IMG/VR virus record: IMGVR_UViG_3300045988_173968
DNA length: 64,000 nucleotides
Direction: 5' to 3' (one strand)
From: a virus
Shown here one piece after another: positions 4,889 through 44,726 of the stretch. Each line of letters opens with the position of its first letter. Position 1 is the first letter of the stretch. The position numbers were made by a program, and so were the translations under genes. Below the pieces are notes generated by a model, which worked only from the letters and a program-made list of their open reading frames with translations, did not search any database and was not told the origin of the DNA.

Positions 4889-5160
4889 TCTCCATACCCC
4901 CTCTCGATAAGGGTCATGATTGCGTAGTTGGCAAGGTCAAGCAGTGTGTCGTCTATTGACTCGTCATTAACCGCTGCGCTGCCATTTCGGACAAGATTCT
5001 TTACCCGCTGAAGCTTATCTTCGAGACGGATGCATGGCATCGTCATTCCATATTCAATGAATGACCTACCAAACGAGTCTCCATAATCTTTGTTTTTGCG
5101 CTCATATATGCCGTTGAGTTCTTTACAAATTCTTTCGTGTTTTCTAACTTTGTCTTCCAT
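4885..5160 (-). CDS. DUF1599-like small protein (often found beside thyX in phages)
   Basis: KNKDYGDSF...IRLEDKLQRVKNL...ESIDDTLLDLANYAIM pattern recalled for DUF1599. Start at MEDKV with an AAAGGGG RBS. Confidence 0.5.
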   Translation of the reverse strand: MEDKVRKHERICKELNGIYERKNKDYGDSFGRSFIEYGMTMPCIRLEDKLQRVKNLVRNGSAAVNDESIDDTLLDLANYAIMTLIERGYGE

Positions 5161-15114: not shown

Positions 15115-15291
15115 TCACTTTTCAATTATTTCAAAGATATGGCCTTCATCTCGTTTAGTGAAAACATATCTATCCCTGATTTTGTACTGGAGCTCGTCCT
15201 CCCAAGTAACTTCGTAGGCGGCTCCTCCCCTGAATACAAACTTCATTTCCGGATCTACAACCGTTGTTAAAAATCTCAGGTACTTTTTCAT
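15115..15291 (-). CDS. Hypothetical small protein (58 aa)
   Basis: MKKYLRFLTTVVDPEMKF.. Its ATG overlaps the glyA stop (ATGA). Below the track's size cutoff. Confidence 0.4.
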   Translation of the reverse strand: MKKYLRFLTTVVDPEMKFVFRGGAAYEVTWEDELQYKIRDRYVFTKRDEGHIFEIIEK

Positions 15292-16523: not shown

Positions 16524-16794
16524 AAAATTTCCTCCTTTACTACTTAATTGAAGATTCCCGTCCAGCTATCGTGTGTCAAAAATCATATGTATTTATCTCC
16601 TTTCATCGGATTAGAACAACAATCTATGTTCCAGAAAATTCGCCTGAGTTGAGTGGGCGAATTTTCGTCGAAGGCGGCCTGTCAAGTGAAAAATAAAATT
16701 TCGTGAAATTTTATTTTTCTAATTTATTTTGGCCAGCAATGCTTTACTTTTGATTAAACCAAAAAGCACTCAAACAATATGTAATAAGTAATGA

Positions 16795-17022
16795 CAACAT
16801 AGATTTGAGGGGAAATTCCCCTCTGTGGGTGGGCCAGGGTCGCATCGACCAGCCCGGTTGGACACTTGGCAGGCGTAGCATTCTCCTGCGTCCCTTTTGG
16901 CTCATAGAGCGTGCGGTTGCTACGAAATCTACCACCTCAAGTGCTGGTTTACTGCTTTTTAGTGTCGTGCAGTTCGACTCTCTCTAAATTGGAAATTTCC
17001 TTTTGGGCATGTTACTGCCCAA
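16795..17022 (-). ncRNA. Unclassified structured noncoding stretch immediately 3' of the CUA tRNA candidate
   Basis: No credible ORF. Helices seen by eye: TTGGGCA/TGCCCAA (17003-17022), CGTAGCA/TGCTACG, GGTGG/CCACC, and palindrome GAGGGGAAATTCCCCTC (16807-16823). Class unknown. Confidence 0.3.
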
Positions 17023-17515: not shown

Positions 17516-18463
17516 CTATTTTGCCTCGTCTGGATAAAATGTTCTGATGTAGTTTGCGTAGTCGTATTTGGCGTATTTTCTTTTAGCCCATGCTCTTTTG
17601 TAATCCATTGAATCCCAATTTTGCTTGGAAGCAAAAATATTATAGCTGAGAATACCTGTCTCGTCTTCAATCTGCTTCGTTTCCCAGCATATCCCAGATA
17701 AATTGAGTGCGTTTGCAGATAGTTCAAAGCCTGTTTTTGATACACGTTTCCATACGGAGTTCATAAAATTCTTGAACTTTTCCTTATCTAGCGTATTCCA
17801 TGTTCTAATAAGCATTCCATTATCACATCTTTTTTGGGAGTTACAAACTTCTCCTTCTTTTCTATAAATATTGAAAAATTTTGCGTCCCTTGTTTTCAAA
17901 ACAAACGGAATTATACTCGGAGGAATTATGTGTGTCTCGCCGCCAGCAGTTAAGCTATTTTCTCCAACATCCTGAATCTTAATATTTAGAATATCATCCG
18001 TTGAAAATCCTTCGAAATATAGCCAAAGGATAGTTGCATATTGACACTCTGGCGTGCCCATGTGAATCGTAGGAAACCATTCAATGAACTTTCTTGAAAG
18101 TTCATAAGGTGATTTTACAAGCATTTTCCCTACATCTTTTTCATACAGTCGAAGCACCACGGCATCGCTACTTATAATGGATTTCTCTATATAACCTTTA
18201 CTTGTGCCATAAGCAAAATATTTCAACAGCGCTTTGTTTATTTCGCTTTGATATTGCGCCAAAACAGGTATTTTTTTATTCGCTTCCAGCAATTCATTTG
18301 TGGTAAAGAAAATAAGATCCTTGCCAAGCTGCTCTTCCGATGGGAAGAACTTTTTCAGCAATATTTCGCTTTTTTTAGCCTCTTTCGTATTAAGAGATGA
18401 ATAGAATTCCTGTTTTAACTCCATTTTGCTAATCCTCCTTGAGATTATGTAAGAGTATAGCAT
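17516..18463 (-). CDS. Hypothetical protein (315 aa), one of only three ORFs ending at TAG
   Basis: Track ORF. Ends at TAG 17518-17516. Read-through would add about 49 codons and overlap the next gene. Confidence 0.55.
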   Translation of the reverse strand: MLYSYIISRRISKMELKQEFYSSLNTKEAKKSEILLKKFFPSEEQLGKDLIFFTTNELLEANKKIPVLAQYQSEINKALLKYFAYGTSKGYIEKSIISSDAVVLRLYEKDVGKMLVKSPYELSRKFIEWFPTIHMGTPECQYATILWLYFEGFSTDDILNIKIQDVGENSLTAGGETHIIPPSIIPFVLKTRDAKFFNIYRKEGEVCNSQKRCDNGMLIRTWNTLDKEKFKNFMNSVWKRVSKTGFELSANALNLSGICWETKQIEDETGILSYNIFASKQNWDSMDYKRAWAKRKYAKYDYANYIRTFYPDEAK

Positions 18464-18511: not shown

Positions 18512-18895
18512 CTATACGGCAATTAAATCTTCTAAATTGAGAAACGAAATAGAGCTTGATGCCAATGTGTTTGCTTTAGCGATCTCTCTCATGTATTTAC
18601 CTGGTAATGAAGTAATATATTTCCCAAGCTTGTTTTTAGGGAAAGAGATGGGGTTTTCGCAAAGAGCTATGCTATCTCTTGGGAGCCCAGTCTCTCCTTT
18701 AGGTAAGAGAACATGAGTTGGCATTTTTGACTTTTTCAAAGCGGTTGTCAGTGGAATAAGAACAACATTCGGACTAAACTTATTTCCAAGGTCATTTTGC
18801 AAAACTATATGTGGTCTATTTCCCCCTTGTACTGTCCCATTGGTTTGTATATCCGCGAAAAAAACATCGCCAATTTTGATATTATCCTTTTCCAT
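18512..18895 (-). CDS. MazF/PemK-family toxin-like endoribonuclease with no obvious antitoxin
   Basis: GDVFFADI..GGNRPHIVLQND..VVLIPLTT matches the PemK/MazF fold pattern. Ends at TAG (18514-18512), and a TGA follows 11 codons later. Confidence 0.65.
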   Translation of the reverse strand: MEKDNIKIGDVFFADIQTNGTVQGGNRPHIVLQNDLGNKFSPNVVLIPLTTALKKSKMPTHVLLPKGETGLPRDSIALCENPISFPKNKLGKYITSLPGKYMREIAKANTLASSSISFLNLEDLIAV

Positions 18896-32479: not shown

Positions 32480-32766
32480 TCCTATTTATTGCAACCTGAG
32501 ATATCTGTTCCAAGTTTGGATCGCCTCTTCGTCGTCTTAAGTTGGGCTTCTGGCCCAATTAAGTCGGATTTGACTTAAGTTTGACTAGCCGAGGTGTGAA
32601 CTCCTGTACTGTTTATCGGACTTTGACCTAGTATATGACCTCGGGCAGCAAGCTGCCGGCTTCTCGCCTTCGCTAATCAGACTCCCTGGCGTCCTTCTTG
32701 CCCTCACAATGCGTTACAGCCGGTTATACCGAGCTGCTTTAGCAGTCGCTAAAAATATCGTTGCAA
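32480..32766 (-). ncRNA. Noncoding module X (about 287 nt) bounded by an 8-bp inverted repeat (ATTGCAAC...GTTGCAAT); retron-msr/msd-like
   Basis: No ORF. Its ends are shared with 36179-36479 (AAAAATATCGTTGCAA and TTGCAACCTGAGAT on the plus strand). Its interior motif GGTATAACCG..ACGCAT..CAAGA.G.ACGCC is shared with 35909-36175. A G follows the 5' repeat. Confidence 0.45.
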
Positions 32767-32775
32767 TTTTTTTAA

Positions 32776-32976
32776 TTATTTATTTTCTGAGAAAAGCTCG
32801 TCCACCGTGGAATCAAGAGCAGAAGCAATTTTCTGATAGTTCTCCAATCTGGAGCGAGTAAAGTTCTTTTCGATTTTGGAAACGGTAGCGGTACAGAGCC
32901 CAACCTTGTCGGCAAGGTCTTTCATGCCGTAGCCTTTCTCCATGCGCTTCTTCATCATTTCATAATTGTGTTTCAT
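32776..32976 (-). CDS. XRE-type helix-turn-helix regulator
   Basis: GYGMKDLADKVGLCTATVSKIEKN..LENYQKIASAL. Start at MKHNYE, which has an AAGGAGG RBS. Confidence 0.75.
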   Translation of the reverse strand: MKHNYEMMKKRMEKGYGMKDLADKVGLCTATVSKIEKNFTRSRLENYQKIASALDSTVDELFSENK

Positions 32977-33088
32977 AGTTAATACCTCCTTAAATGTTGA
33001 CAAGTTAGCAAAAATATACTACTATGGTCGTAGCACATTCTTTCTGTTTCATGGTGTGCCGCCGCCCTTCATGGGCGGCTCCTTTCTT

Positions 33089-33562
33089 TTATTCGTCCTC
33101 TTCGGTGTAATCTACCCAATAGATAGGGAGATTGATCCAATCTTCCTCACCGTCTGCCTTAGCATAAAAGAAGCCGCCCTCGCCAGATTCTCTAACTGTG
33201 GCAACTTCTTCCTCGGTAGCTTCGCGCCAATTTCCTTCGCCAAACTCGGCATTAAGTTCATTCTCGAGACACTCTTCAGAACAATATGTAACGCAATCGT
33301 CTTCGTTGTAGTATCCCTCGTTAATTTTTTCTCCACAGCAAGCGCAGGTCGTCTTAAAAACTGGGATTGCCAGGAATGCGTCAATTTTCTTTATGGCTTT
33401 GTTCAAATCAACTCCAGTGCTCTTGATTTGAATTGTCTTACCATCTTCCGCAAGGTATGCTTCCATACCCTCGCCTATCTCATCGGCGGAATAAATAGTT
33501 TCTTTATCTTCCATACCATTGAGTTTAAGATCAATGATCAGTCTGAGTTTTCTTGAAAACAT
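33089..33562 (-). CDS. Hypothetical protein with a Zn-ribbon
   Basis: Track ORF with CACCGE..YCSEEC. A GC hairpin lies after the stop. Confidence 0.5.
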   Translation of the reverse strand: MFSRKLRLIIDLKLNGMEDKETIYSADEIGEGMEAYLAEDGKTIQIKSTGVDLNKAIKKIDAFLAIPVFKTTCACCGEKINEGYYNEDDCVTYCSEECLENELNAEFGEGNWREATEEEVATVRESGEGGFFYAKADGEEDWINLPIYWVDYTEEDE

Positions 33563-33574
33563 TTCACATCCTCC

Positions 33575-33892
33575 TTAATTATCTAAAAGTGTTTGAAGCT
33601 CGTTTGAAAAATCATAGCCACCTGACGGATTTGACATTTCGATCAATTCCTCGATAGTGATAACTGGGTATGGCGAAAAAGTAATAAAAGTGCAAAACAT
33701 CTCAAGAAAGCCTCCGACTGCTTCTTTTATAAAATAACAATCGCCATCCCAACACATATAACATTGCAAAGATTTTTCGCCATCGTAAGCATCTACGGCA
33801 TGCTGCATTGTTGCCGCCCATTTGCCTATATCCCCGTGGAAGAACACCGCATATTCCTTGAGCAGATCCAGGTTAATATAGGGGTAATCCAT
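33575..33892 (-). CDS. GG-tail family relative, degenerate tail (..DFSNELQTLLDN)
   Basis: Paralog of 33905-34210 (both contain IEELIEMS / FVEMSSP followed by the tail). Confidence 0.5.
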   Translation of the reverse strand: MDYPYINLDLLKEYAVFFHGDIGKWAATMQHAVDAYDGEKSLQCYMCWDGDCYFIKEAVGGFLEMFCTFITFSPYPVITIEELIEMSNPSGGYDFSNELQTLLDN

Positions 33893-33904
33893 ACCATTCC
33901 CTCC

Positions 33905-34210
33905 TTATATTCCAAGCAACGCTGCAAGCTGTTCGGAGAAATCTTCCTGCGGAGAAGACATCTCAACGAATTCGTCCCATGTTATTACTGGTCTGTCTTC
34001 TTCAAAATTACACAAGTTTCTGCATAACATCGTATTATGCACGATATAATACACCGCTTTATCACAATTCCATTTCATGCCGCAACTCAAGAGACCCGTA
34101 TAACAACGAACAGAGTATTTCATCGTATCGACCATGGTTCTACTCCAATGGTCAATCTTCAGAGCATATGTCCTCAACAAATCCAAATCAACATAAAGAT
34201 ATTCCGGCAT
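33905..34210 (-). CDS. GG-tail family relative, degenerate tail (..DFSEQLAALLGI)
   Basis: Paralog of 33575-33892. Confidence 0.5.
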   Translation of the reverse strand: MPEYLYVDLDLLRTYALKIDHWSRTMVDTMKYSVRCYTGLLSCGMKWNCDKAVYYIVHNTMLCRNLCNFEEDRPVITWDEFVEMSSPQEDFSEQLAALLGI

Positions 34211-34212
34211 AC

Positions 34213-34455
34213 TTATACCCCCTGAATTCCAAGAATCACATATCCGTCTTTAACAAAATCCGGGTCGGACAACGCATAGCAGATACGCATTGTCACAGAC
34301 TTTCCGGTATATTCACCGTTATACTCTTTCAGAATCAGAATATCTCCCACACGGAAGTCTCTGTCGTACTTACGAACCTCAAAAGTCTTAACTCCGTTCA
34401 CTACATCTCTGTAGTACGGTGGCCAGATTTTTAATTCATGTATCTTCGGATTCAT
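34213..34455 (-). CDS. ASCH/PUA-like (DUF3850-like) domain protein
   Basis: MNPKIHELKIWPPYYRDVVNGVKTFEVRKYDRDFRVGDILILKEY matches the recalled ASCH/DUF3850 pattern. ATGA overlap with the upstream gene. Confidence 0.55.
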   Translation of the reverse strand: MNPKIHELKIWPPYYRDVVNGVKTFEVRKYDRDFRVGDILILKEYNGEYTGKSVTMRICYALSDPDFVKDGYVILGIQGV

Positions 34456-34721
34456 ACGGCTGCACCTCCTAACAGTGTCATAAGCTCTTCTTCGAAAGTG
34501 AAAGGCTCCTCTACTTGAACTTTTTCGAGGAATGCAGGAACAGCCCATTCGATTCTTTCCCTACCAGAGTTTTCATGAATACAGATGCGATACTCGCGGT
34601 CGCTGAAACCAATAACCTCAATAAACTCAACACAACTACTGCGCCGATATTTATCAAGTCTCCAGGGCAATCTTTGATGGTTTACGATTTGCACAACATC
34701 TCCAACTTGAAACTTTCTCAT
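34452..34721 (-). CDS. GG-tail family small protein (..FEEELMTLLGG-AAV), SH3/KOW-like N-terminus
   Basis: N-terminus is MRKFQVGDVVQIV. C-terminal tail motif with a 3-residue extension. Confidence 0.6.
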   Translation of the reverse strand: MRKFQVGDVVQIVNHQRLPWRLDKYRRSSCVEFIEVIGFSDREYRICIHENSGRERIEWAVPAFLEKVQVEEPFTFEEELMTLLGGAAV

Positions 34722-34733
34722 ATACTCCCCTCC

Positions 34734-35882
34734 TTACGCAGCAACATCGTCTGCCATCATCTTGATGACATCGCAATGATACTTTTTGTTGTACCAAGAG
34801 ATCACATAATCAAAATACTCAGGTTCCACATTGCTATAATAAGAAAGCTTGCCACGCAGAGTCATTACTTCTTCCGGCGGCCAGCCCTTACCATCTTTTC
34901 TTGCAACTATGTAGTTATTCAGCATTGCCTTGAACACCTTTTTATTCTCGTGTCCAACAGTGATTTTGTTGTCTTTGTTGATCATCAAACCAAGACACCA
35001 GTTTCGACCTGCTCTGCTGCCGTAATGTGTTTTTTCTTTCTTAATGGTGTATGGCGCATCGAACTTCTTAAATACATCGTTCATCATCTCGATGACGCCC
35101 ATGAACAAGAAACCTTTCTTGGAAGAAACCGTAGCATCATCGGCGTAACGAGTGTAGACAAAATCGTTAGTCTCGCTGGCTCTCAATCGTCGAGAGATTT
35201 CATGGTCGATGGGAATCATAATGACATTAGTAAGAAGCGGAGAAATCGGAGTTCCCTGCGGCAGTCCACCATCGAGGAAACAGAGAGAGATAGCATCTCG
35301 TAGCGCTTTCTCGCCATCCTCATATTTAACAACCTCGCAGAAAGGATAAATCACGGATAACATCCGCATTGTGAATTCCAGCGTAGTCGAACCAAAGAAA
35401 TTGCTCAAGTCCGTCTTGAGGTACCAATTACTGTTGTTTCTTTGATGTACTTTCAGCGCATCAGTAGTGCTTCTGCCCTTGATGTACGCAAAAGCAGCCG
35501 TATGATATAGAACCTTAAAATCATTCTCGAAGATTGCCTTGAGACTATACAGAGCTTGTTTCAGTTCGTCATCCGGCGCATCGATCTGACGCCAACCGCC
35601 GGATTTCTTTGGAATTTTGAAAGAATTATAATGTTCTCGCATGTTGTTCGCATCAAATTTCGGCTGGTAAGTACGATTAAAACTCTTCAGCTTCCCGATA
35701 AGATACGGTGCTCGCGCCATTTCTTTTAGCTCCTGGGGGAGCTTTTTGTATTCGTAGGTTCTTGTGGATGTCCCGAAGTCCACTCCGTTAATATACGGGC
35801 TGAGATTTTTCACACCAAAGAGAACATCCTCAAGGGTAAGTTGCTTCTTTGCTCTTGTCATAAATGTGGTTACATATGGCAT
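34734..35882 (-). CDS. Reverse transcriptase (retron-like or defence-RT-like, 382 aa)
   Basis: FKIPKKSGGWRQIDAP, YLKTDLSNFFGS, LPQGTPISPLLTN, YTRYADDATVS (YADD) and LGLMINKDNK. No maturase or endonuclease domains. Confidence 0.85.
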   Translation of the reverse strand: MPYVTTFMTRAKKQLTLEDVLFGVKNLSPYINGVDFGTSTRTYEYKKLPQELKEMARAPYLIGKLKSFNRTYQPKFDANNMREHYNSFKIPKKSGGWRQIDAPDDELKQALYSLKAIFENDFKVLYHTAAFAYIKGRSTTDALKVHQRNNSNWYLKTDLSNFFGSTTLEFTMRMLSVIYPFCEVVKYEDGEKALRDAISLCFLDGGLPQGTPISPLLTNVIMIPIDHEISRRLRASETNDFVYTRYADDATVSSKKGFLFMGVIEMMNDVFKKFDAPYTIKKEKTHYGSRAGRNWCLGLMINKDNKITVGHENKKVFKAMLNNYIVARKDGKGWPPEEVMTLRGKLSYYSNVEPEYFDYVISWYNKKYHCDVIKMMADDVAA

Positions 35883-35908
35883 ATAAAAACTCCTTTCTTT
35901 TGTGTCGA

Positions 35909-36175
35909 TAAAACAGTCTAAAACACTTTCCTGATGACGCTGGAGGCGCCTGAAGACTCGCTGTTCTGCTAGTTACGGCTTCTAGTGACGGCGTTCTAGA
36001 TGAAATAAGGCCATCTTGAGTGCAGCTTTCTAATGGTTTGAACCATTATTTGCCAGAAAAGATGATTCGAGCTCGCCAGTCGCTCCTGGATCAGCTCCGG
36101 CGTGCCTCTTGTCTGTGACTATGCGTACCATTCGGTTATACCAAAATGCGCTCAATGAGCTATAACACTGTTTTA
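35909..36175 (-). ncRNA. RT-proximal noncoding module Y2 bounded by a 9-bp inverted repeat (TAAAACAGT...ACTGTTTTA); best msr-msd or DRT-ncRNA candidate
   Basis: The 5' repeat is followed by G. The 3' repeat ends about 25 nt before the RT ATG. The interior is homologous to module X over about 55 nt. Confidence 0.5.
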
Positions 36176-36178
36176 CTT

Positions 36179-36479
36179 TTGCAACCTGAGATGTGTGCGA
36201 TGATCAGCTACTGAGCTCTGGAGACCGGCTCCTCGAGTTTACTGCTGTATTATGTTTGTCTTTACCGTGCGTTGGTTTCTGGATAAGCGGTGGATGTTAG
36301 CAGTTTTGCTTTCGCAGTTAACCTATATCTGTCTTGGTTAACGATGATGTTCCACTTCACCTCGCCTACGCCAGGTACCTGCAGGCTTCCTTCGTGGTAT
36401 CCCGTTCCTTTTCGCTGGCAATTCAGTACATTCGCTTAAAACGAAATGCTTTGTTTTGAAAACAAAAATATCGTTGCAA
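36179..36479 (-). ncRNA. Noncoding module Y1 (about 301 nt) bounded by a 9-bp inverted repeat (TTTTGCAAC...GTTGCAAAA)
   Basis: No ORF. Shares both termini with module X. Internal hairpins are visible (TTGTTTT/AAAACAA, GTTAACC/GGTTAAC, GGAG/CTCC). Confidence 0.4.
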
Positions 36480-36488
36480 AAAAATCAT

Positions 36489-37172
36489 TTAATAGGTATC
36501 AATGGCAAAATTAAAAGCGTCCACCAGAATAATCTTCTTAAGGACACCTTTATTTACAAAGTTTACGAAGTTGGAAACCCCAAAAGAAACGATAGTCCAA
36601 ATCGTTCCCGCAACTGAAAGAGATACATTGCAGGCAGATACAGGAGTTGCCGCTCTTGCTTCCTCCTCGGTAAACTCCATAGAGCGAAGCAGATTGTCCT
36701 GCATCTTAGGATCAGACCAGTTGGCTGCGTAGTGTTGAGCATCAGTAAGCCGTGTCCGGAAATCAAAGACAGCTTTGATGTTCATGTTTGTTGCGTTTTC
36801 CTTGACGATTCTCCGCCGAAGCTCAATGCTATCTACGCAGAGGAAAACATAGCCGCTCAGACGCTGCTTGTCATATCCCTTATCGAAGATTTTCAGCTCT
36901 GAATCGATATCTGGATTGATTTTATGAAGCATTTCGGCAACCGCCGCAGTCTTGGGCTTGCCAATATCCTCAGTCGTAAACATCTGATTGGCAAGGTTAT
37001 GTGCCTCAACGACATCGAAGTCGTAAAGAGAAATGTTCGTCAGCCCCAATCGGGCCAAACAAACCGCCAAAGTAGAACCGACGCTGCCACAGCCGATAAT
37101 ATGGATGCGGGTCTTCGCACACTTGTCTGGATTAAAGAACTCGAAGCTCTTTGACAAATCCATCATCTGCAT
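36489..37172 (-). CDS. ThiF/E1-like adenylyltransferase (Rossmann domain only, 227 aa)
   Basis: IHIIGCGSVGS (GxGxxG) followed by LYDFDVVEAHNLANQ. Overlaps the JAB gene by 41 nt. Confidence 0.75.
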   Translation of the reverse strand: MQMMDLSKSFEFFNPDKCAKTRIHIIGCGSVGSTLAVCLARLGLTNISLYDFDVVEAHNLANQMFTTEDIGKPKTAAVAEMLHKINPDIDSELKIFDKGYDKQRLSGYVFLCVDSIELRRRIVKENATNMNIKAVFDFRTRLTDAQHYAANWSDPKMQDNLLRSMEFTEEEARAATPVSACNVSLSVAGTIWTIVSFGVSNFVNFVNKGVLKKIILVDAFNFAIDTY

Positions 37173-38058
37173 ATTCCTCCTCTAAGTCAATATCTTCGGT
37201 AATTCCACCGCCTATAACCTCAGCTTTTACCGAGTTTTTGGTTTTGGAATAATCCTCACTTTCGTTTTTTTTATCCTGTTTCTTACCGTAGTTGCCATAC
37301 GGATAATCATAGTCGTCCCAAAAATCTTCCCATCGACTACCGCATCCTCCGTAACCACCATATCCGTAGTCATATGTGCCACTCTTTTTAGAGCTATTGT
37401 AAGCACCTGTACCATGATAGGTATATGTCTTTGCCTTTACGAGTTTTTTGGACTCCTCCAGGAACTCACCGTTATCGAACTCAATAGAGACATCTATATC
37501 TCCATTCTCATAAAGCACATTGTTAGCGAGGTCGTAAATCTTAGCATTGTGCTCGTTCTTTTTATTCCAAATCACAAACACCCAAAATGTATCAGGTGAG
37601 CTATTCCCTACCCTGGTTGCCTGGTCAGTGAGATCAGTACCACTCGGGCTTGTCCCCATATTTACATGGCTGTGACCTTGGAAACGGATACGGTTGTAGT
37701 CCTCATCGGGGATTTTCTCGAGAAAAGCTCTGTGCTCATCCTCATCCGTGTCCACATTCACACCAGTAACGACTTGCGGGTACACAAAAACATCTGAGAT
37801 TTTGAAGCCGGCATCACCCACTCTGTCTACATATCCATACCATGCTACCTCAGAGTCAAAATTGTTGACCAAAGTAATCATCTTGGAATAGGCTTCGGGG
37901 GTGAAAATAATCTTCGCTTTACCCGTCTTCTCGCTTTTGAACTCCTTGGTGTATGTAAACTTGCCACCCTCGAAGCTCTTAGCGGATGAGATCTTCTCCG
38001 TGAATTCTCGAATCATTTCCGCAATTGTCTCTTTGGGAATGTTAATCATTTTAGCCAT
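37132..38058 (-). CDS. JAB/JAMM (MPN+) metallopeptidase with a G/Y-rich C-terminal region
   Basis: E (SEVAWYGY) followed by GHSHVNMGTSPSGTD, which is HxH-x7-S-xx-D. The C-terminus ..DGFVKELRVL resembles the family tail without GG. Confidence 0.75.
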   Translation of the reverse strand: MAKMINIPKETIAEMIREFTEKISSAKSFEGGKFTYTKEFKSEKTGKAKIIFTPEAYSKMITLVNNFDSEVAWYGYVDRVGDAGFKISDVFVYPQVVTGVNVDTDEDEHRAFLEKIPDEDYNRIRFQGHSHVNMGTSPSGTDLTDQATRVGNSSPDTFWVFVIWNKKNEHNAKIYDLANNVLYENGDIDVSIEFDNGEFLEESKKLVKAKTYTYHGTGAYNSSKKSGTYDYGYGGYGGCGSRWEDFWDDYDYPYGNYGKKQDKKNESEDYSKTKNSVKAEVIGGGITEDIDLEEEYADDGFVKELRVL

Positions 38059-39403
38059 TCTTCAACACCTCCATAGCTTCTTTCACGGTATGCACCGAAC
38101 CATCCTCGAACTCAATGAAACGCTCATTAGAAGAGCAGATCTTTTCAATGAAATTGGCGCCAACCGTCGAGTCATCAAAGTTGATATTGTGAGTAGAACC
38201 AATAGCCTGTTCAACTGCCCCAAGGTAATTTCTCTCACCCATCATACGATCAATGATTCGAGCATTACCACCCATGCAATGGAAACCGCAGAGATGAGGG
38301 TGAGGCAGATAAGTCTTGAGCTCTGCCAGATTTGTCTCTCTTTTATCTGGTCTCAAGGTACCAGCAACATCCAAGACAAAATGTGCCCAGGTGCGAATCT
38401 TGAATTTCGGATTCTCCCCAAAGACGCTATCCAAGAACAGCTTCATATCATTTTTGGACTTGATGTTCTTCCGCTCGCCATAGTTGCCATAAAAATAGCT
38501 GTATTCGTTATTGAGGCAACGCTCGAAGCTATCCTCATCAAAAGAGTCCAAATAACCCTTGACATAAAAGGAGATAAGCTCTTCGTCCGCATCTTCCAGG
38601 ATGAGATCCTTGCACCGGAGAAAGAACTTGAGAAATTCCCCTTCGTTGCCATCATTACGGCGAATTTTTTCTTCAAGAGCCGCAATTTGCAGGGTGTTAA
38701 AATGGTCTTTGTCGTAAAGGTCATCGAGCTGCCGAAGAAGATTCTCTATGTTGCTCTTAATTCTCGTGTATTCACTTTTCATTCGCTCCAACGAACTCTT
38801 CTCGAATTTCACATCAATGTCACTGAGAGCAGAGCGGATGAACATCTCACGCAGGTCAAGACGGTCATACAGTTTCTGAGATGAATCAGCAAACATATTT
38901 TCATCATTGCGAGAAATCGATTTCACGAGATCAAGCTCGTCGTTGTCGAGAGGCTTGCCCGCAAAGGTCGCAGGGAAGAGCTTCTGCACAATGCAAGCCA
39001 ACATACGACCAAATGACGAATCGAGCTTTTCGCTGTAGATGATGGAACGATTATTGTTTTCATCAATAAATGCCCAACCGACATCTTTTTGTTTGGAAAC
39101 GAAAAGACTTACCGGCTCATTCTGCTTGTAGCCAGCCGCAATAATGTCGGATTTATTCTCGCCAAGCCAAGACAAAGCGTTTTCACCGGAAATCAAATAG
39201 ACCGTGTTCCGCTCAGTTGGAATTGCATAATTGCTTTTTGCAATTTGGAGGTTGTATGTATTTTCCTTATCTCTGGGGTAGACCAGTGCTCTCAAGACAT
39301 GAGAATAACACTCCTCTCCGCCGATTGGTGTTACTGGGATATTGGTGCAAATCGTAGAAAACTTGTTGTCCGTAAATGTTGTGTTGCGAATACTTCGAAT
39401 CAT
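38051..39403 (-). CDS. Hypothetical 450-aa protein, first gene of the JAB/E1 operon
   Basis: Overlaps the JAB start by 8 nt. Has a central coiled-coil-like region and the C-terminal motif HPHLCGFHCMGGN. No family recognised. Confidence 0.6.
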   Translation of the reverse strand: MIRSIRNTTFTDNKFSTICTNIPVTPIGGEECYSHVLRALVYPRDKENTYNLQIAKSNYAIPTERNTVYLISGENALSWLGENKSDIIAAGYKQNEPVSLFVSKQKDVGWAFIDENNNRSIIYSEKLDSSFGRMLACIVQKLFPATFAGKPLDNDELDLVKSISRNDENMFADSSQKLYDRLDLREMFIRSALSDIDVKFEKSSLERMKSEYTRIKSNIENLLRQLDDLYDKDHFNTLQIAALEEKIRRNDGNEGEFLKFFLRCKDLILEDADEELISFYVKGYLDSFDEDSFERCLNNEYSYFYGNYGERKNIKSKNDMKLFLDSVFGENPKFKIRTWAHFVLDVAGTLRPDKRETNLAELKTYLPHPHLCGFHCMGGNARIIDRMMGERNYLGAVEQAIGSTHNINFDDSTVGANFIEKICSSNERFIEFEDGSVHTVKEAMEVLKNG

Positions 39404-39436: not shown

Positions 39437-39512
39437 TGGAGCTGGCGGACGGACTTGAACCCCCGACCTGATGCTTACAAAACATCTGCTCTACCAACTG
39501 AGCTACGCCAGC
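39437..39512 (-). tRNA. tRNA-Thr (anticodon UGU)
   Basis: GCTGGCG acceptor, GCTC-AGTTGGTA-GAGC D arm, anticodon loop TT-TGT-AA, GGTTCAAGTCC T arm, and CCA encoded. Confidence 0.85.
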
Positions 39513-39531
39513 AATGGTAACTAATTTGTGA

Positions 39532-40053
39532 TTAGGTTCCTTTGCGTGAAAGACGGCACGCAACAAATAAACCAATTGACATCACTATGGTATCCATCAC
39601 CGCTGCGACCATATTTTTCGGAATCTTTACTGCAAGGGGGATAGAAAAGAGCAAGCATTCGACAGCTGTTTTAACAACGCCGACGCCAAGTAAAACTGCC
39701 ACACCGGTTATTGCAATGTTTGACCCACACAAACTATCATTTTTCTGGTAGGCTTTCCCACAAATGATCCCAATCAGAACATTGCCAAGCATCCAACCAA
39801 GTGGAAACCAACCCGAAGAAAGCAAGCTTACGACAGTACACCCCGCACCGCCTACAATCGCGCCGCCAAGCATCCCGAACCTCATACAGCAAACCGCAAG
39901 CACTATATACCCAAGGTCAAGCGAAATATGGCCAATGCCAATCGGTATTTTGAGCACCATACTTACGACAACATACAGTGCAATACAAAGTGCAATTTGG
40001 CATATCCACATAGTGTTTTTTCTTATAGAATTTTCTTTAGTTGGTTTATTCAT
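39532..40053 (-). CDS. Polytopic membrane protein, ECF-transporter S-component-like
   Basis: 173 aa with about 5-6 hydrophobic helices. Size and topology resemble vitamin or queuosine-precursor S components. Weak call. Confidence 0.4.
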   Translation of the reverse strand: MNKPTKENSIRKNTMWICQIALCIALYVVVSMVLKIPIGIGHISLDLGYIVLAVCCMRFGMLGGAIVGGAGCTVVSLLSSGWFPLGWMLGNVLIGIICGKAYQKNDSLCGSNIAITGVAVLLGVGVVKTAVECLLFSIPLAVKIPKNMVAAVMDTIVMSIGLFVACRLSRKGT

Positions 40054-40399
40054 CAGTCGATTCTCCTTTCAACTTTTTACTGTCTACATATACCTCTATT
40101 GCCCTGTGATGCGCAAACTGCTCAAGAAGTTCGTCAAAAGATACACCATTCACTTTTGCGTCCACTTTCATTGCAGAAAATTGATCTTTATATTTCTTAA
40201 CCATGCTCTCTAAAGCGAGAAAATGTTCTTTGTCTTTCGGATAAAAAGCGATATCCTCAATGCAAACTTTGCTGATATCTTTTTCGTGGTAAATCGCTCT
40301 CAAACAATTTTTACATGGTTCATCCTCCGGCGATAATGAGAAGTTAATGCAATCACCGCAATAGACGGTAACTCCATTCACCTTAATTGGCTTTACCAT
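40046..40399 (-). CDS. Hypothetical protein
   Basis: Track ORF with a CGDC..CKNC Zn-ribbon. Confidence 0.5.
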   Translation of the reverse strand: MVKPIKVNGVTVYCGDCINFSLSPEDEPCKNCLRAIYHEKDISKVCIEDIAFYPKDKEHFLALESMVKKYKDQFSAMKVDAKVNGVSFDELLEQFAHHRAIEVYVDSKKLKGESTDE

Positions 40400-40423
40400 T
40401 AAAAATACCCCCTAAATTTTTAT

Positions 40424-40498
40424 TGGAGCTGAAGCCCAGACTTGAACTGGGAACCTGCGCTTTACGAGTGCGCCACTCTACCTTTGAGTTACTTCAGC
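40424..40498 (-). tRNA. tRNA-Thr (anticodon CGU)
   Basis: GCTGAAG acceptor, ACTC-AAAGGTA-GAGT D arm, loop CT-CGT-AA (A-A mismatch at the last stem pair), GGTTCAAGTC T arm, and CCA encoded. Confidence 0.75.
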
Positions 40499-40532
40499 AT
40501 ATTGCCCCTCCGAAGAGGGGCATGAGGTATTA

Positions 40533-40760
40533 TCAGGCGTTGGAGGTCTTCGCAATGCAGGACAGGCGGCAGGACTCAGTAATGCCGTAGGAGGCAAAGG
40601 ACTTGTCCATCTCACCGGCACGCAACGGAGTACCATCCAGCGCGGGGGTGGCGGTAGAATAATCTACATTGTTCTCATCGAGAACCTCTCGAATGGTCTT
40701 CTCAGCGTCTACGAGCAGAGTCTTACGATCCATGTTGTTAGTCAGAGTAATGCTTACCAT
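40533..40760 (-). CDS. Hypothetical 75-aa protein (possible beta-grasp-like fold; speculative)
   Basis: Track ORF with higher GC than its neighbours. A GC hairpin (40504-40521) follows the stop. Confidence 0.5.
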   Translation of the reverse strand: MVSITLTNNMDRKTLLVDAEKTIREVLDENNVDYSTATPALDGTPLRAGEMDKSFASYGITESCRLSCIAKTSNA

Positions 40761-40859
40761 AATTTTTTCTCCTTTGTTATGTAAATTTAATTTTTAGGGA
40801 CATAGTTGCGCCCCGCAGCGGTTAGCCACGGGGCTTGATTGTACTGTGCTGTTTACGGC

Positions 40860-41255
40860 TTACTGGACATCGATGGCAGCCTGAACGGAAGCAACCTCAG
40901 CCTCGATCTCGGTGAGAGTAGTACCAAGAGTCTCCTCCAGAGCATTCATCTTCAGGATGATGGCACCGAACTTGTCCTCAGCGTAGGTTTTAGCCTCGGC
41001 GGCAGACATACCGGTGGGGATCATCTCGGTGTAGGTCGCGTAGCCATTCTCGTCGTGAGAAGCGCTTACGAACACAACGCCATTCTTATTGGCGCTGGCA
41101 GTCTTAGTGCCAACATCAATGCTGAAAACGGGGTTCTTTTCTTTGTCGCGCAGAACCAGAGCATCGGGACGATACTTCTTAGTCTTACGCAGGGTCTCCA
41201 GCTTCAGGCCGGAAGTGAGTACGAGTGCGTCTCCATGGATAGTGATCTTAGTCAT
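40860..41255 (-). CDS. Hypothetical protein
   Basis: Start at MTKITIHG with an AAAGGAG RBS. Higher GC. No family recognised. Confidence 0.5.
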   Translation of the reverse strand: MTKITIHGDALVLTSGLKLETLRKTKKYRPDALVLRDKEKNPVFSIDVGTKTASANKNGVVFVSASHDENGYATYTEMIPTGMSAAEAKTYAEDKFGAIILKMNALEETLGTTLTEIEAEVASVQAAIDVQ

Positions 41256-41317
41256 AGTTTGACTCCTTTCGCCCATTTTGGGCATTAAAATTATTTATGT
41301 ATAACCCTGTCTGGGTT

Positions 41318-41605
41318 TTACAACGAAAGTATGTTCGAGAGCTGGTCAAAAAAATCTTCGTATGCAATTTCAGGCTCTATGCAGTCAACATAAAAACGGC
41401 GGTTGATTTCCTTCGCTCCAGGGATATCACAACTCCATAAGCCTTCAAGATTGTGATTATCGAACATGATCGAAACACAATTCGACTTACATACTTCAAC
41501 AACCTCACCAGCCTCTCCAATGAAATGACTTTCATCTAATCCGCTGTGTGGGTTTTTCTTAACAACAACCACTCTGTCGCCTACTTTGAATTTTGCCATT
41601 ATCAT
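41318..41605 (-). CDS. GG-tail family relative, degenerate tail (..EDFFDQLSNILSL), SH3/KOW-like N-terminus
   Basis: N-terminus is MAKFKVGDRVVVV. The tail helix is retained but GG is lost. Confidence 0.5.
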   Translation of the reverse strand: MIMAKFKVGDRVVVVKKNPHSGLDESHFIGEAGEVVEVCKSNCVSIMFDNHNLEGLWSCDIPGAKEINRRFYVDCIEPEIAYEDFFDQLSNILSL

Positions 41606-41829
41606 TCACCTCCAAATAATTTTAGTAATTCTTTCTCGAATGTTGGTTGTTCTTCCTCTGGCAAAAGGATAAGTTCATCCTTTGCAATTTCGTCTGCGGT
41701 CGGCATATAACAGTCTGCAGAATATGCAAATGTCCCTTCACACCTATTCTTACACGCCAAGTAATCGCAATTGTCAGGGTTGGCTGTTTCATTCTGACGG
41801 AATAGACAAAATTCATAAAAACAGTCCAT
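41602..41829 (-). CDS. GG-tail family small protein (..FEKELLKLFGG-E), Cys-rich N-terminus
   Basis: Tail motif with a 1-residue extension. Confidence 0.55.
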   Translation of the reverse strand: MDCFYEFCLFRQNETANPDNCDYLACKNRCEGTFAYSADCYMPTADEIAKDELILLPEEEQPTFEKELLKLFGGE

Positions 41830-41960
41830 TACTCAAGCTCCTCTTTCATTTTTTCATACAATTCGCTAAACCGCTTGCTCCACTTCCTTAGCCCGAAGAA
41901 AAAGCATACGCCCAGCACAATCCACAGACCGCTGGCGATGTTTATTAATAGATTATCCAT
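41829..41960 (-). CDS. Small membrane protein (43 aa)
   Basis: MDNLLINIASGLWIVLGVCFFFGLRKW.. Start and stop overlap both neighbours. Confidence 0.35.
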   Translation of the reverse strand: MDNLLINIASGLWIVLGVCFFFGLRKWSKRFSELYEKMKEELE

Positions 41961-42307
41961 CATTCTACCTCCTGCATCCAAAATTTACGACGGCAATCAG
42001 AGCATATCCGGTTTGAACAATTTCCGTATCTATCCCGACAATCAGCAGAAATGAGTTTTGGGCATAGCATCAAGCGCCCACATTTGTCAATTTCCGCCTC
42101 TGGATACTGTTCAAGAAACACGCTCTGCCTCGTCTTGCGTGGATGTGCAGCAGACCATTCCTCGACTATAGCAATCTGATCCGTAGCGTCCAGCGTTGAT
42201 ATGGTGGAAACCCCACAACCACCATTAGAAGCTGGGCACCCAGTACATTTATCACCAAAACTCTCGCACATCCTGTTGCGTTCCTCAATAAATTTTACAA
42301 CATCCAT
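41960..42307 (-). CDS. Hypothetical Cys-rich protein
   Basis: Track ORF. Start moved to MDVVKF, which has a GGAGG RBS. Confidence 0.5.
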   Translation of the reverse strand: MDVVKFIEERNRMCESFGDKCTGCPASNGGCGVSTISTLDATDQIAIVEEWSAAHPRKTRQSVFLEQYPEAEIDKCGRLMLCPKLISADCRDRYGNCSNRICSDCRRKFWMQEVE

Positions 42308-42445
42308 TGAATTTTCCTCCATTTGCACCCGTCGCACGCGCCATTATGTGCGTGTTTGTACTTCCCGCAGTATTGTCATAACTCGTTGATAAGCGCCTTG
42401 CGGTCTGACGCCAGCTACATTGAACTTTATCTCCCATAGAAAATT

Positions 42446-42751
42446 TCATTCGGTACTCCCTCCCAATAATTTAAGAAGTTCGTCCTCAAAGGATTCTATT
42501 GGAGCAACTAACCGGATCTCATTTTCAAGAACCCAGCGGCAATTAGGATTATAAGCGTCAAGCTCCCAAGTGGACTCATAGGCATCCTCGAATGAGATGC
42601 AAAATTTTGCATTCAATATTCCATTAACATTTTCCGGTTCATTGAAATTAACATCAATAACAGTTCCAACAGCGCCAATTAAATCGTCACACGCATAATC
42701 GTCGTATGCAATATTCTCAACAATTTCTACATTATCGCCTACTGAAAACAT
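42446..42751 (-). CDS. GG-tail family small protein (..FEDELLKLLGG-STE), SH3-like N-terminus
   Basis: N-terminus is MFSVGDNVEIV. Tail motif with a 3-residue extension. Confidence 0.6.
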   Translation of the reverse strand: MFSVGDNVEIVENIAYDDYACDDLIGAVGTVIDVNFNEPENVNGILNAKFCISFEDAYESTWELDAYNPNCRWVLENEIRLVAPIESFEDELLKLLGGSTE

Positions 42752-42849
42752 CTTCTTACCTCCTTTTCAAAAGTGGGGTTCTTCCCAGTCATGCACCCCT
42801 CGACTGCTTATTTGAAAGGAAAGGAGAAACACCATGAACAAGATGGTGT

Positions 42850-42899
42850 TGGGGGAAGGCTTGGGATTTGAACCCAACAATGCCTTTCGGCAACCTTCC
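42850..42899 (-). ncRNA. tRNA-like minihelix: acceptor stem, T arm and CCA, but no D or anticodon arms
   Basis: GGAAGGT / TGCC-GAAA-GGCA / TTG / TTGGG-TTCAAAT-CCCAA / GCCTTCC-C-CCA. An upstream GCCTTCC (about 42975-42981) could pair alternatively with the 5' strand. Confidence 0.4.
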
Positions 42900-43016
42900 G
42901 TATAGAGGCGGCTGTTGCACGCTGCGCACACGCATCGAAACCGCTAATCAGGGACTGTGCAAGCACCATCCCTTGGAAGGCAAACCCTTTGACGCAACAT
43001 TTAATTCTCACTTACT

Positions 43017-43103
43017 TGGCGGAGAGGATGGGATTCGAACCCATGGCTCTGACGAGTCACCGGTTTTCAAGACCGGCTCCTTAAACCGCTCGGACACCTC
43101 TCC
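43017..43103 (-). tRNA. tRNA-Ser (anticodon UGA), long variable arm
   Basis: GGAGAGG acceptor, loop CT-TGA-AA, long variable arm, GGGTTCGAATCCC T arm, and CCA encoded. Confidence 0.85.
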
Positions 43104-43560
43104 AGGTCTAGCTGGTTTTCTTGTTTCTCTCAAACCAGCAAAGCATCTATCTACGCAAGTTCAAACCGTAGCCATTGGATGAACTTTTTCTCGACCCGCA
43201 GGGTTAGATGCTTTACCCCGCTTGAACATTTTCGCAGTCCCTAGCGCCTCACCACAAAGTCTTTACTCTGTGGAGAGGTCTGAGCGTTAGGCAAGCTGTG
43301 TACACTATTGGCCAATTTATGCCATGCAATTAGCACTCGCCCTGCGGAATCGTACCGCACCCTCATAAACCGTACAGTATTAAGAATGGCCATTCCTACC
43401 CTCGGTGGTTTATGATTCGAACCTCGCTTTGCTGTACTGATGTAGTAATACGACTCGTGCCATCCAGCAGTTCACACGAGAAGTGTGGGTTGAAGATTTT
43501 TAATCGACCTTTTAGCTAGCTCTCACTTCTTGGATTAGCGCGACCCACAAATTGATATTT
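43104..43560 (-). ncRNA. Roughly 457-nt ORF-free structured spacer inside the tRNA array (large ncRNA candidate, class unknown)
   Basis: Only short, implausible ORFs. Many local helices. Short stretches recall RNase P or tRNA motifs (GGGTGCGGTA, GGTTCGAATC) but no complete known core could be built. Confidence 0.35.
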
Positions 43561-43629
43561 TGGTTTCGGGTGGACTTGAACCACCGACGCACTGGCTCCC
43601 AGCTGCTCTACCTCCTGAGCTACGAAACC
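43561..43629 (-). pseudogene. tRNA-like gene with a truncated anticodon arm (13 nt instead of 17)
   Basis: Normal acceptor (GGTTTCG), D arm (GCTC-AGGAGGTA-GAGC) and T arm (GGTGG-TTCAAGT-CCACC). The anticodon region is GCTGG-GAG-CCAGT, a 3-nt loop. No CCA encoded. Confidence 0.5.
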
Positions 43630-43744
43630 ATATTTAATTGGACAGTCTTTCTGAATCTAGTGTGCGCATTGCGCCTTCATCTCTCTCCGCAACTGTCCGG
43701 GATGCGTCAAATCCATCCGCGTGGCTGTCCCGGGAACAGCTAAT

Positions 43745-43820
43745 TGGTACGCCATCAGGGATTCGAACCCCGAACTAGCCGGATATAAGCCGGATACTCT
43801 GACCGTTGAGTTAATGGCGC
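43745..43820 (-). tRNA. tRNA-Ile (anticodon UAU)
   Basis: ACTC-AACGGTCA-GAGT D arm, loop CT-TAT-AT, GGGGTTCGAATCCC T arm, CCA encoded, and a G1-U72 wobble. Confidence 0.75.
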
Positions 43821-43846
43821 ATTTAAGCAGGCAAGCCTTGGCACCT

Positions 43847-44359
43847 CTAAACGAGGTGCCGCCTGTTGGTTCGATATGTATTGATTTCTTCTTGAAGCTC
43901 GTCCATGATGTCGGTAAGGATCTCCACATAGTTTTCATCTTGGCAGTAGCGATAAGCCACATCTTCAAGTTTCGAACCTGTGTACTTCCAGGAATCTGGA
44001 TTGTTGTATTCCAACAGCCCTTCCGCAATGAACCAGATACATTCTTCAACGGAGTCGAACGACCGGAAACTGCCATCATATTGACGCCAACCTCCGATGT
44101 TATTTTTCTCCTTGAAGTAGGTTGATGTTCCCCATCCGCTCTCCAATCCGAATTTTGCAAGTAAGTACAGCGGGTTTATTCCGTAATACTTCCCTGTTTC
44201 GAGGATTGTCCAAGCATATGGGGACAGCCCTTCTCGAAGATTTGTCAGTACATACTCGAATTCTTCCAATGTGTAGTCCGTTTCATCGGTAAAGACTTCG
44301 TACCCATACGCCGGAACTACTATCAGAAGCGCTAAGAGGATTGCAATGATTTTACGCAT
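43847..44359 (-). CDS. Secreted glucosaminidase (GH73/LytD-FlgJ-like) domain protein
   Basis: N-terminal signal peptide MRKIIAILLALLIVVPAYG. INPLYLLAKFGLESGWGTS..NNIGGW. Ends at TAG (43849-43847), and a TAA follows 8 codons later. Confidence 0.65.
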   Translation of the reverse strand: MRKIIAILLALLIVVPAYGYEVFTDETDYTLEEFEYVLTNLREGLSPYAWTILETGKYYGINPLYLLAKFGLESGWGTSTYFKEKNNIGGWRQYDGSFRSFDSVEECIWFIAEGLLEYNNPDSWKYTGSKLEDVAYRYCQDENYVEILTDIMDELQEEINTYRTNRRHLV

Positions 44360-44391
44360 TTAATACCTCCTGAATTTTTGCCCTTGCGGGC

Positions 44392-44468
44392 TGGTCGGGA
44401 TGACAGGATTTGAACCTGCGACCTCGTACTCCCAAGGCACGCGCTCTACCAAGCTGAGCCACATCCCG
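44392..44468 (-). tRNA. tRNA-Pro (anticodon UGG)
   Basis: CGGGATG acceptor, GCTC-AGCTTGGTA-GAGC D arm, CGTGC-CTTGGGA-GTACG anticodon arm, GCAGG-TTCAAAT-CCTGT T arm, and CCA encoded. Confidence 0.9.
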
Positions 44469-44639
44469 ATAAAGAAAGAGCCTGCGGTTTTTCTACGCCA
44501 CAGGCTCTTCCACAGAAAGGGGGCGATGCACATCCCTGCATCTGGGGCTCTTTTTCCGGCTTGCATTTCGCAAGTCGCCTCTCGCACGAGCAGTGCTAAG
44601 GTTATCTCGAAAGGAGGTGCGGGGGAATGACGACCCCCG

Positions 44640-44726
44640 TGGTGCCGCTGGCGGGATTTGAACCCGCACGATGTTTCCATCGAGGGATTTTAAGTCCCTT
44701 TCGTCTGCCAATTCCGTCACAGCGGC
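44640..44726 (-). tRNA. tRNA-Leu (anticodon UAA), long variable arm
   Basis: GCCGCTG acceptor, AGGGA-CTTAAAA-TCCCT anticodon arm, variable arm GATGGAAACATC, GCGGG-TTCAAAT-CCCGC T arm, and CCA encoded. Confidence 0.85.

Follow-up and report, generated by a model that had tools for sequence, protein, structure and literature searches.

Retrons are known as bacterial anti-phage systems in which a reverse transcriptase (RT) is served by one RNA and paired with a toxic effector. What, then, does a retron-like RT do in a phage genome, amid several related noncoding modules and next to E1-like and JAB proteins? We addressed this question for a 64,000-nucleotide (nt) stretch of IMG/VR virus record IMGVR_UViG_3300045988_173968, hereafter the window, and for relative loci compared with it, which are labeled with L-numbers (L007, L019, and so on). 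Several copies of one structured RNA family accompany one retron-clade RT, and on balance we think that they probably form a phage-borne, retron-like reverse-transcription system with several templates. The window is phage DNA: RT copies of 99% identity sit on IMG/VR viral contigs, and a further copy of 96% identity lies on a 201-kb contig. A megablast comparison of the window with GenBank phages gave no match.

An initial annotation, made from the letters of the window, had placed three noncoding modules around the RT gene, each with terminal inverted repeats (a1 and a2) and a G directly after a1. All three are present (Table 1), with one end of module X moved from 32480 to 32488. In Y1, a1 (UUUUGCAAC, 36473-36481) is followed by an unpaired G (36472), a stem P1, a second stem P2 (36429-36448), a variable center, CAG, and the 3' arm a2 (GUUGCAAAA, 36177-36185). 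Y2 comprises a1 (UAAAACAGU, 36167-36175), G (36166), P2 (36129-36148), UAG, and a2 (ACUGUUUUA, 35909-35917), while X comprises a1 (AUUGCAAC, 32760-32767), G (32759), P2 (32717-32736), CAG, and a2 (GUUGCAAU, 32488-32495). The three annotated modules are probably joined by a fourth, which we tentatively call Z: a1 (16796-16805), G (16795), a P2-like hairpin, two more hairpins, and a2 (16621-16630) succeed one another there, and the arms pair at 10 of 10 positions. X and Y1 share their termini as annotated, with 16 identical nt at one end (32751-32766 and 36464-36479) and 14 identical nt, within a 19-nt block at 89% identity, at the other (32489-32507 and 36179-36197). The proposed kinship through an interior motif also stands, in the form of a 32-nt motif common to Y1, Y2, and X. 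We trace the partly mosaic look of the modules to a conserved 5' domain and a shared a1/a2 class, and not to demonstrated recombination.

Folds of the minus-strand RNA closed by a1/a2 gave z scores of -4.2 (X), -2.5 (Y1), and -1.6 (Y2). Perfect 8-bp repeats with a following G, spaced 200-430 nt apart, occur 69 times on the plus strand and 80 times on the minus strand of the window, and 40-72 times in shuffled sequences; the inverted repeats alone are thus not beyond chance in the window. We accept the modules as real because of these folds and because relatives conserve them and show covariation, and not because of the repeats themselves. A Y2 orthologue of the same plan precedes an 84%-identical RT in L007, and X is kept at the same place in close relatives.

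The modules of the window and its relatives share one plan: a1, an unpaired G, 3-5 nt, P1, GC, a bipartite P2, UAACAAnUUG, a variable center, (U/C)AG, and a2. A search for T[GA][TC]AA[TC]-G followed by its complement returned 148 matches on the RT strand versus 13 on the opposite one. Whereas nhmmer searches from the window modules found close relatives only, a covariance model of the 5' domain, R1, reached further, and it was used to choose modules without reference to a1/a2. Among 49 diverse sequences, 97.7% of P2 cells are paired, and seven of the eight P2 pairs show compensatory changes (103 cells); none of 500 shuffles reached the same level, and slid controls stayed at or below 50%. An anchored P1 stem of at least 5 bp was found in 90% of modules, against 21% of shuffles, and is represented by 48 distinct sequences. 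No Rfam family matched any module, which is the outcome of the Infernal/Rfam check suggested with the initial annotation; the 4227 families were searched against the window at gathering thresholds, a 4.4-kb region at E ≤ 10, and 13 relatives at gathering thresholds.

The ends of the modules bear the same signature. In 80 of 103 modules chosen with R1, a stretch of at least 7 nt that lies 180-480 nt downstream is perfectly complementary to the 10 nt ahead of the G, as compared with 3 of 103 for a control window. Of these 80, the base after a1 is a G in 76, and AG directly precedes a2 in 66; the median distance from the G to a2 is 285 nt. When G.U pairs are allowed, the a1/a2 helix is present in 144 of 156 modules, with several Watson-Crick pair types at every position. 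The excess of G.U over A.C pairs (54 versus 20), together with the compensatory changes, indicates that pairing takes place at the RNA level and on the RT strand. The annotated match to the msr-msd architecture of retrons is therefore borne out in hundreds of relatives, in which the frame of a1/a2 and G with its 5' hairpins and variable center is conserved and covaries, and the geometry is that of Ec86. The Ec86 noncoding RNA (ncRNA) reads a1 UGCGCACCCUUA, G, ...CUGAC, G, a2 UAAGGGUGCGCA; 48 E. coli genomes contain this sequence at 100% identity, where it lies beneath or beside a gene that bears the annotation of retron St85 family effector. Ec86 and the module family are alike in having a G after a1 and a G before a2.

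The centers, at ~150-250 nt, are C-rich (28%) and U-poor (19%). In one class of modules, a palindromic hairpin of up to 12 bp, CCAUUGUGCCACAAUGG, is conserved at the center; no conserved central structure was found in the other classes, and a scan of IMG/VR for the central palindrome of class D1 was unspecific. Classes with their own a1/a2 sequences (upstream, downstream-1, and downstream-2) recur across phages. Among close relatives, fourfold-degenerate sites of the RT and ThiF genes diverge by 5-10% (33% in L011), and the 5' domain by 0-4% (9% in one relative). The centers of the same relatives diverge by 7-10% in X, 7-22% in Y1, and 18-24% in Y2 (34-52% in L011). These figures point to a constrained recognition domain joined to a center that changes at or above the neutral rate, a pattern that we read as that of msr and msd in retrons. 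In L092, the variable center of one module (4685-4991) includes 22 consecutive A.

RNA and RT travel together. The RT family comprises 4789 protein matches, many of them of ~380 amino acids (aa) at ~50% identity, and occurs in more than 533 viral stretches and in 440 stretches of GTDB genomes, all of them metagenome-assembled genomes (MAGs) and mostly from gut Clostridia; among the 80 GTDB loci listed, the only isolate is a Pseudomonas strain with a distant match at 29%. R1 gave 108 matches in 54 IMG/VR loci and 67 in 45 independent MAG loci, and all 175 lie on the RT strand, which argues against repeats that serve as promoters or terminators of unrelated transcripts. A promoter and terminator scan found site numbers not above those of shuffles. 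The matches cluster at two places, either ending ~25 nt before the RT start or starting 6-40 nt after the RT stop. The modules number one to eight per RT, lie on either side of its gene, and frequently come as tandem pairs; L019 has eight, with small open reading frames (ORFs) in between. When 2.9 million viral contigs were scanned with the P2 motif only, 45 stretches were found, and in 41 of them this RT lies beside the motif on the same strand. The remaining four are truncated where a chunk ends, and in three of these the RT is on another chunk of the same contig. The strand bias and the motif scan together indicate that RNA and RT are inseparable. In L009 (5324-5936) and L010 (4864-5476), an inserted nucleotidyltransferase/HEPN toxin-antitoxin pair separates the RT from the ThiF-proximal module, and a second module is placed after the RT.

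The RT had been annotated as a retron-like, YADD-bearing protein with no extra domains. We found YADD at residues 246-249, RVT_1 as the only Pfam domain, and an N-terminal extension of ~78 aa. The top 25 PADLOC matches to it are all retron RTs (best RT_II-A, 1e-51), and in a PDB search the best chain is the Ec83 RT (5e-25), followed by Ec78 and other retron RTs. NCBIfam models gave 184.4 bits for retron_St85_RT, 104 for Ec67, 75 for group II, and 37.4 for Drt2. The RT falls in no group devoid of ncRNA. In one description of retron RTs (PMC7736814), the hallmarks are NAXXH in region X, with H most conserved, and VTG in region Y, with G most conserved. Aligned to the Ec83 RT, the window RT reads ALKVH and CLG at these places, and the family consensus reads AVKRH and NLG; H146 and G298, the most conserved residues of the two hallmarks, are invariant across the family. 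The protein also carries an ordinary QGTPISP motif. By these comparisons, the RT is nearest to retron RTs of the St85/Ec83/Ec78 group, and not to group II, diversity-generating retroelement (DGR), Abi/UG/DRT, or CRISPR-associated RTs. At four MAG loci (L146, L147, L163, and L164; 6001 to about 7400), the RT match spans 1360-1410 nt instead of the usual ~1135 nt, which suggests an insertion, possibly an intron or intein.

These results lead us to a retron-like model. The ends of each module would pair via a1/a2, and the RT would recognize the conserved 5' domain, in which P1 and P2 would form the msr-like part. The 2'-OH of the conserved unpaired G after a1 would prime complementary DNA (cDNA) synthesis, as in retrons, and copying would begin at the conserved (U/C)A, which adjoins the G before a2 on its 5' side, and enter the C-rich, msd-like center. 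Every module would yield its own branched RNA-DNA molecule, with ~150-220 nt of DNA that is G-rich and A-poor. Because the 5' domain is shared, a single RT could serve all modules. The role would lie in virus-host or virus-virus conflict, with variable cDNAs as decoys or sensors and with the E1-like, JAB, and 450-aa proteins as protein partners in place of bacterial retron effectors; that the cDNAs and the three proteins act in conflict is speculative.

Several points weigh against this model. The RT misses the retron_St85_RT cut-off of 235 bits and stays far under the cut-offs of all remaining NCBIfam retron models; since its best matches are nevertheless all retron RTs, we regard it as a divergent retron-clade RT outside every curated family. 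The N and A of NAXXH and the V and T of VTG are not kept. The centers fold into multi-branched structures rather than one long msd stem and are longer than usual for retrons. The module RNAs measure ~285 nt from the G to a2, versus 170 nt in Ec86. Branch priming is deduced from the anatomy of the RNA, and Y2 and Z score weakly with R1. Among the neighbors, none matches a PADLOC retron effector model of types I-XIII; the link between E1/JAB and the RT is drawn from synteny, and L007, L095, L108, L113, and L117 have an RT and modules but lack the partner genes within the available 5-6 kb of upstream sequence. Any specific biological role is speculation.

The absence of one long msd-type stem and the partly kept hallmarks, together with constraint limited to the 5' domain and the ends, would also suit a different account, in which the modules are RT-binding RNAs, or RNA-level scaffolds, regulators, or decoys, and never branch-primed templates. 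The RT would then use another primer or template, for example the neighboring tRNAs, arrays of which border the cassette both in the window and in relatives. We consider this account unlikely: a G after a1 and an AG before a2 serve no obvious scaffold purpose and mirror the priming geometry of Ec86, the P2 motif was never found without this RT in the 2.9 million viral contigs, and the module centers show no similarity to the window tRNAs.

Two further accounts assign the paired ends another use. DRT2, a defense-associated RT system, consists of an RT and a ~300-nt upstream ncRNA, and the initial annotation had drawn this comparison. The family here likewise has a long structured ncRNA, of ~300 nt, beside an RT with no extra domains, and a1/a2 joins both ends, so that the RT could copy the center repeatedly, in rolling-circle fashion, into a concatemeric, gene-encoding cDNA; sense centers that are at least 95% stop-free number 36 of 111, against 19% in shuffles. 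The comparison nevertheless fails on several counts. The RT is distant (the cut-off of the Drt2 model is 390 bits, and retron St85 scores far higher), the conserved branch-type G and the a1/a2 frame set the modules apart, two thirds of the centers have stops in every frame and most are not ORFs, antisense centers are stop-free in 16 of 111 versus 17% in shuffles, and divergence at or above the neutral rate does not fit coding sequence. A DRT2-like system is accordingly quite improbable. Terminal inverted repeats, several copies per genome, and an adjacent RT could also describe inverted-repeat DNA that is mobile or regulatory (resembling miniature inverted-repeat transposable elements, MITEs, or promoters or terminators), or the template repeats of a DGR. 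We give this account next to no credence, because the R1 matches keep to one strand, the compensatory changes and G.U excess reflect RNA-level pairing while the arms differ between copies, and no second copy of any module center (that is, a variable repeat) was found in the window by blastn with 7-nt words; moreover, QGTPISP is ordinary and no non-retron class matches the RT better. We therefore rejected the DRT2, DGR, and MITE readings on the Drt2 score, the stops in the centers, the strand bias, the covariation, and the lack of a variable repeat, and we retain the retron-like model.

The features of the cassette (Table 1) all lie on the minus strand, in the 5' to 3' order tRNA array, 450-aa protein, JAB, ThiF/E1-like, Y1, Y2, and RT. 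The 450-aa, JAB, and ThiF genes overlap successively (with 41 nt common to the 3' end of the JAB gene and the start of the ThiF gene), Y1 begins 7 nt past the ThiF stop codon, and 26 nt separate the end of Y2 from the RT start codon, close to the ~25 nt annotated. Given these overlaps and short gaps, the cassette is one tight unit.

Table 1. Features of the RT cassette and its surroundings in the window
Feature	Coordinates	Strand	Evidence or remark
tRNA gene array	39440..44726	-	seven tRNA matches; directly upstream of cassette
450-aa conserved protein, central coiled coil	38051..39403	-	first cassette gene; synteny
JAB/MPN+ metallopeptidase, 308 aa, Tyr/Gly-rich tail	37132..38058	-	HSHx7SxxD motif
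ThiF/E1-like adenylyltransferase, 227 aa	36489..37172	-	Pfam ThiF 9e-24
Module Y1	36177..36481	-	R1 model 48.8 bits, E 3e-8
Module Y2 (variant a1 class)	35909..36175	-	R1 13.4 bits; P2/linker motif common to X
Retron-type RT, 382 aa	34734..35882	-	Pfam RVT_1 1e-20
Cro/C1-type helix-turn-helix (HTH) protein, 75 aa	32776..33003	-	Pfam HTH_3 7e-9; directly upstream of X
Module X	32488..32767	-	R1 47.9 bits, E 5e-8; ~2 kb downstream of RT
Module Z, shorter, probable fourth	16621..16805	-	R1 25.2 bits, E 0.002

The partner genes are conserved with the RT. In IMG/VR relatives (tblastn), the order 450-aa protein, JAB, ThiF, RT is found with ThiF in 69 of 74 and the 450-aa protein in 68 of 74, the rest being truncated contigs. 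Of the 62 MAG loci, 57 contain ThiF, 56 contain JAB, and 50 contain the 450-aa protein. Overall, the three genes precede the RT in ~90% of relatives. This synteny extends to RTs of 37-39% identity; no such conservation is seen downstream of the RT. The annotated E1/JAB neighborhood is therefore not incidental, and the two genes are conserved operon partners of the RT. By the logic of retron-type operons, the ThiF, JAB, and 450-aa genes are candidate partners or effectors. At 1-6000 of L007, the 84%-identical RT and its Y2-like and X-like modules lie beside a sigma factor, CdaA, and YbbR, and the ThiF, JAB, and 450-aa genes are absent; this arrangement could mark a prophage junction or result from chimeric assembly.

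Each partner has its own sequence profile. ThiF matches generic E1 adenylation domains only, and PADLOC E1-E2 models. In JAB, residues E70, H129, H131, S139, and D142 (E...HxH...S..D) are invariant in 27 homologues, and RPN11 is the sole PDB match, a weak one (E 0.02); PADLOC JAB matches are weak as well. The JAB assignment was made from the invariant motif and the weak RPN11 match. Many cassette JAB proteins (L019-L092) end in Y(L/M)GG plus one residue (E, K, or R), and these ends resemble a ubiquitin-type tail awaiting trimming; the window copy has a Tyr/Gly-rich stretch and a different C-terminus. The 450-aa protein matched nothing in Pfam, PHROGs, NCBIfam, or PADLOC, and PDB sequence and profile searches plus Pfam on 27 homologues returned coiled-coil noise only. 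Protein-database searches gave six homologues, and an AlphaFold model from six sequences had a predicted local distance difference test (pLDDT) of 37 and was not used.

Between the RT and module X lie five small genes and then the HTH gene, on the minus strand. The order HTH gene, then module, is kept in L007 and L011 and is not conserved in distant relatives. The HTH protein has a weak HTH_VI match (6e-6), which does not surpass what it scores against further HTH models of PADLOC, for instance capH (1e-7), and its link to the RT system is uncertain. Two genes downstream of the RT sits a DUF3850/ASCH gene, and the Y2 linker UACGCAUAGUCACAGAC (36111-36127) is complementary at 16 of 17 positions to the DUF3850/ASCH mRNA at 34284-34300 (blastn E ~0.2), which could be chance or an antisense contact. 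Apart from one marginal 17-mer, the module centers showed no complementarity to the rest of the window, tRNAs included.

Elsewhere in the window, module Z is part of an ORF-free ncRNA cluster (16621-16945, minus strand), in which the Rfam families skipping-rope (16861-16945) and DUF3800-XI (16809-16856) precede Z. No DUF3800 gene lies near this cluster; its neighbors are genes for a serine hydroxymethyltransferase (15288-16478) and a recombinase core-binding-domain (MrpR-type) protein (17516-18463). The phage also encodes a MazF-like toxin (18512-18895) and an ECF-transporter S component (39532-40053). tRNA arrays flank the cassette in most relatives. They adjoin it downstream, on the same strand, in L021, L026, L032, L040, L053, L055, L062, and L064 (7-11 kb), and the same downstream region contains a tmRNA in L026 (9341-9761) and a drum RNA in L040 (7682-7787). 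The cassette seems to be embedded in an RNA-gene region.

How does this cassette compare with known systems? Its nearest RT kin are bacterial retrons of the St85/Ec78/Ec83 group (types I-A and II-A in the classification of Mestre et al. 2020, PMC7736814). Like them, it has paired ends, one or two 5' hairpins where the msr of retrons has one to three, a variable template-like center, and RNA, RT, and protein genes in one operon. Unlike them, it is a conserved large-phage cassette and not part of a bacterial defense island, has one to eight RNAs for each RT, placed on either side of its gene at distances of up to 18 kb, retains NAXXH and VTG only as H and G in an RT below the curated family cut-off, and has as partners an E1-like enzyme, JAB, and the 450-aa protein, none of which is a listed retron effector. 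Ec73 and Ec67 are retrons in temperate phage genomes, of the classical one-RNA kind with known effectors, and represent host defense cargo; by comparison, this cassette belongs to the syntenic core of an entire phage group, with several RNAs and no known effector. The mechanism is most likely that of a retron, and replicon type, several templates per RT, new partner genes, and role set the system apart. Conserved RNA structures beside RT genes are described by Weinberg et al. 2017 as the Rfam 'RT-n' motifs, some of them proposed as retron RNAs (PMC5737381); the modules resemble these in their place next to an RT gene and differ in that no Rfam family matches them. In the portions of the literature covered by a full-text search, we found no account of retron-like RTs in phages that come with more than one RNA or beside ThiF/JAB.

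Retron-type RTs at 25-29% identity are present in Staphylococcus and Listeria jumbo phages. In Machias (MW349128; L173, 3500-4400), the 1.1 kb that precede the RT hold four tandem ~200-nt units; four copies of a 34-nt motif are spaced 196-211 nt apart, and two units have arms of 15 nt and 10 nt with a G after each. In vB_StaM_SA1 (MW218148; L333, 800-1800), there are five tandem units of the form a1-G...UUUG-a2, two of them with perfect 10-bp arms. The Staphylococcus units share a conserved hairpin, AUUAUAUGAAUACGUAUAAU, and the arrays are unannotated and lie directly upstream of an RT of ~500 aa, whose role is called unknown in a passage of published work (PMC10638138). No Rfam family matched the Machias or vB_StaM_SA1 arrays, and no ThiF/JAB match was found within 5 kb upstream of the Machias RT. 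These four or five tandem a1-G units parallel the modules, in that their arms differ between units yet stay complementary; they differ in the RT (25% identity, ~500 aa) and in a 5' domain that gives no R1 match.

In a bolder reading, which we hold as doubtful though conceivable, retron-type reverse transcription would be an offensive or self-serving tool of large phages and a new functional class of retroelement system. One RT would convert several quickly changing template RNAs into different branched cDNAs, and these might work with the E1-like enzyme, JAB, and the novel 450-aa protein. They might, for example, mislead or sense host immunity or competing phages, or even take part in ubiquitin-like conjugation linked to nucleic acid, and the principle might be common to Staphylococcus jumbo phages.

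The cassette is conserved in a large and so far undescribed group of uncultured gut Clostridia phages and changes the picture of retrons by three departures: arrays in which template-like RNAs number up to eight, a partner module of E1-like and JAB proteins that is unprecedented, and no known effector. If the RNAs are reverse transcribed, these phages would make several different single-stranded DNAs in infection, which would bear on counter-defense and on virus-virus conflict. Such synthesis could account for odd single-stranded DNA signals in viromes, and genome engineering would gain natural retrons with multiple templates. Experiments are possible now, since Staphylococcus jumbo phages with parallel arrays can be cultivated. 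Retron-like DNA synthesis may thus be a viral tool as well as a bacterial defense.

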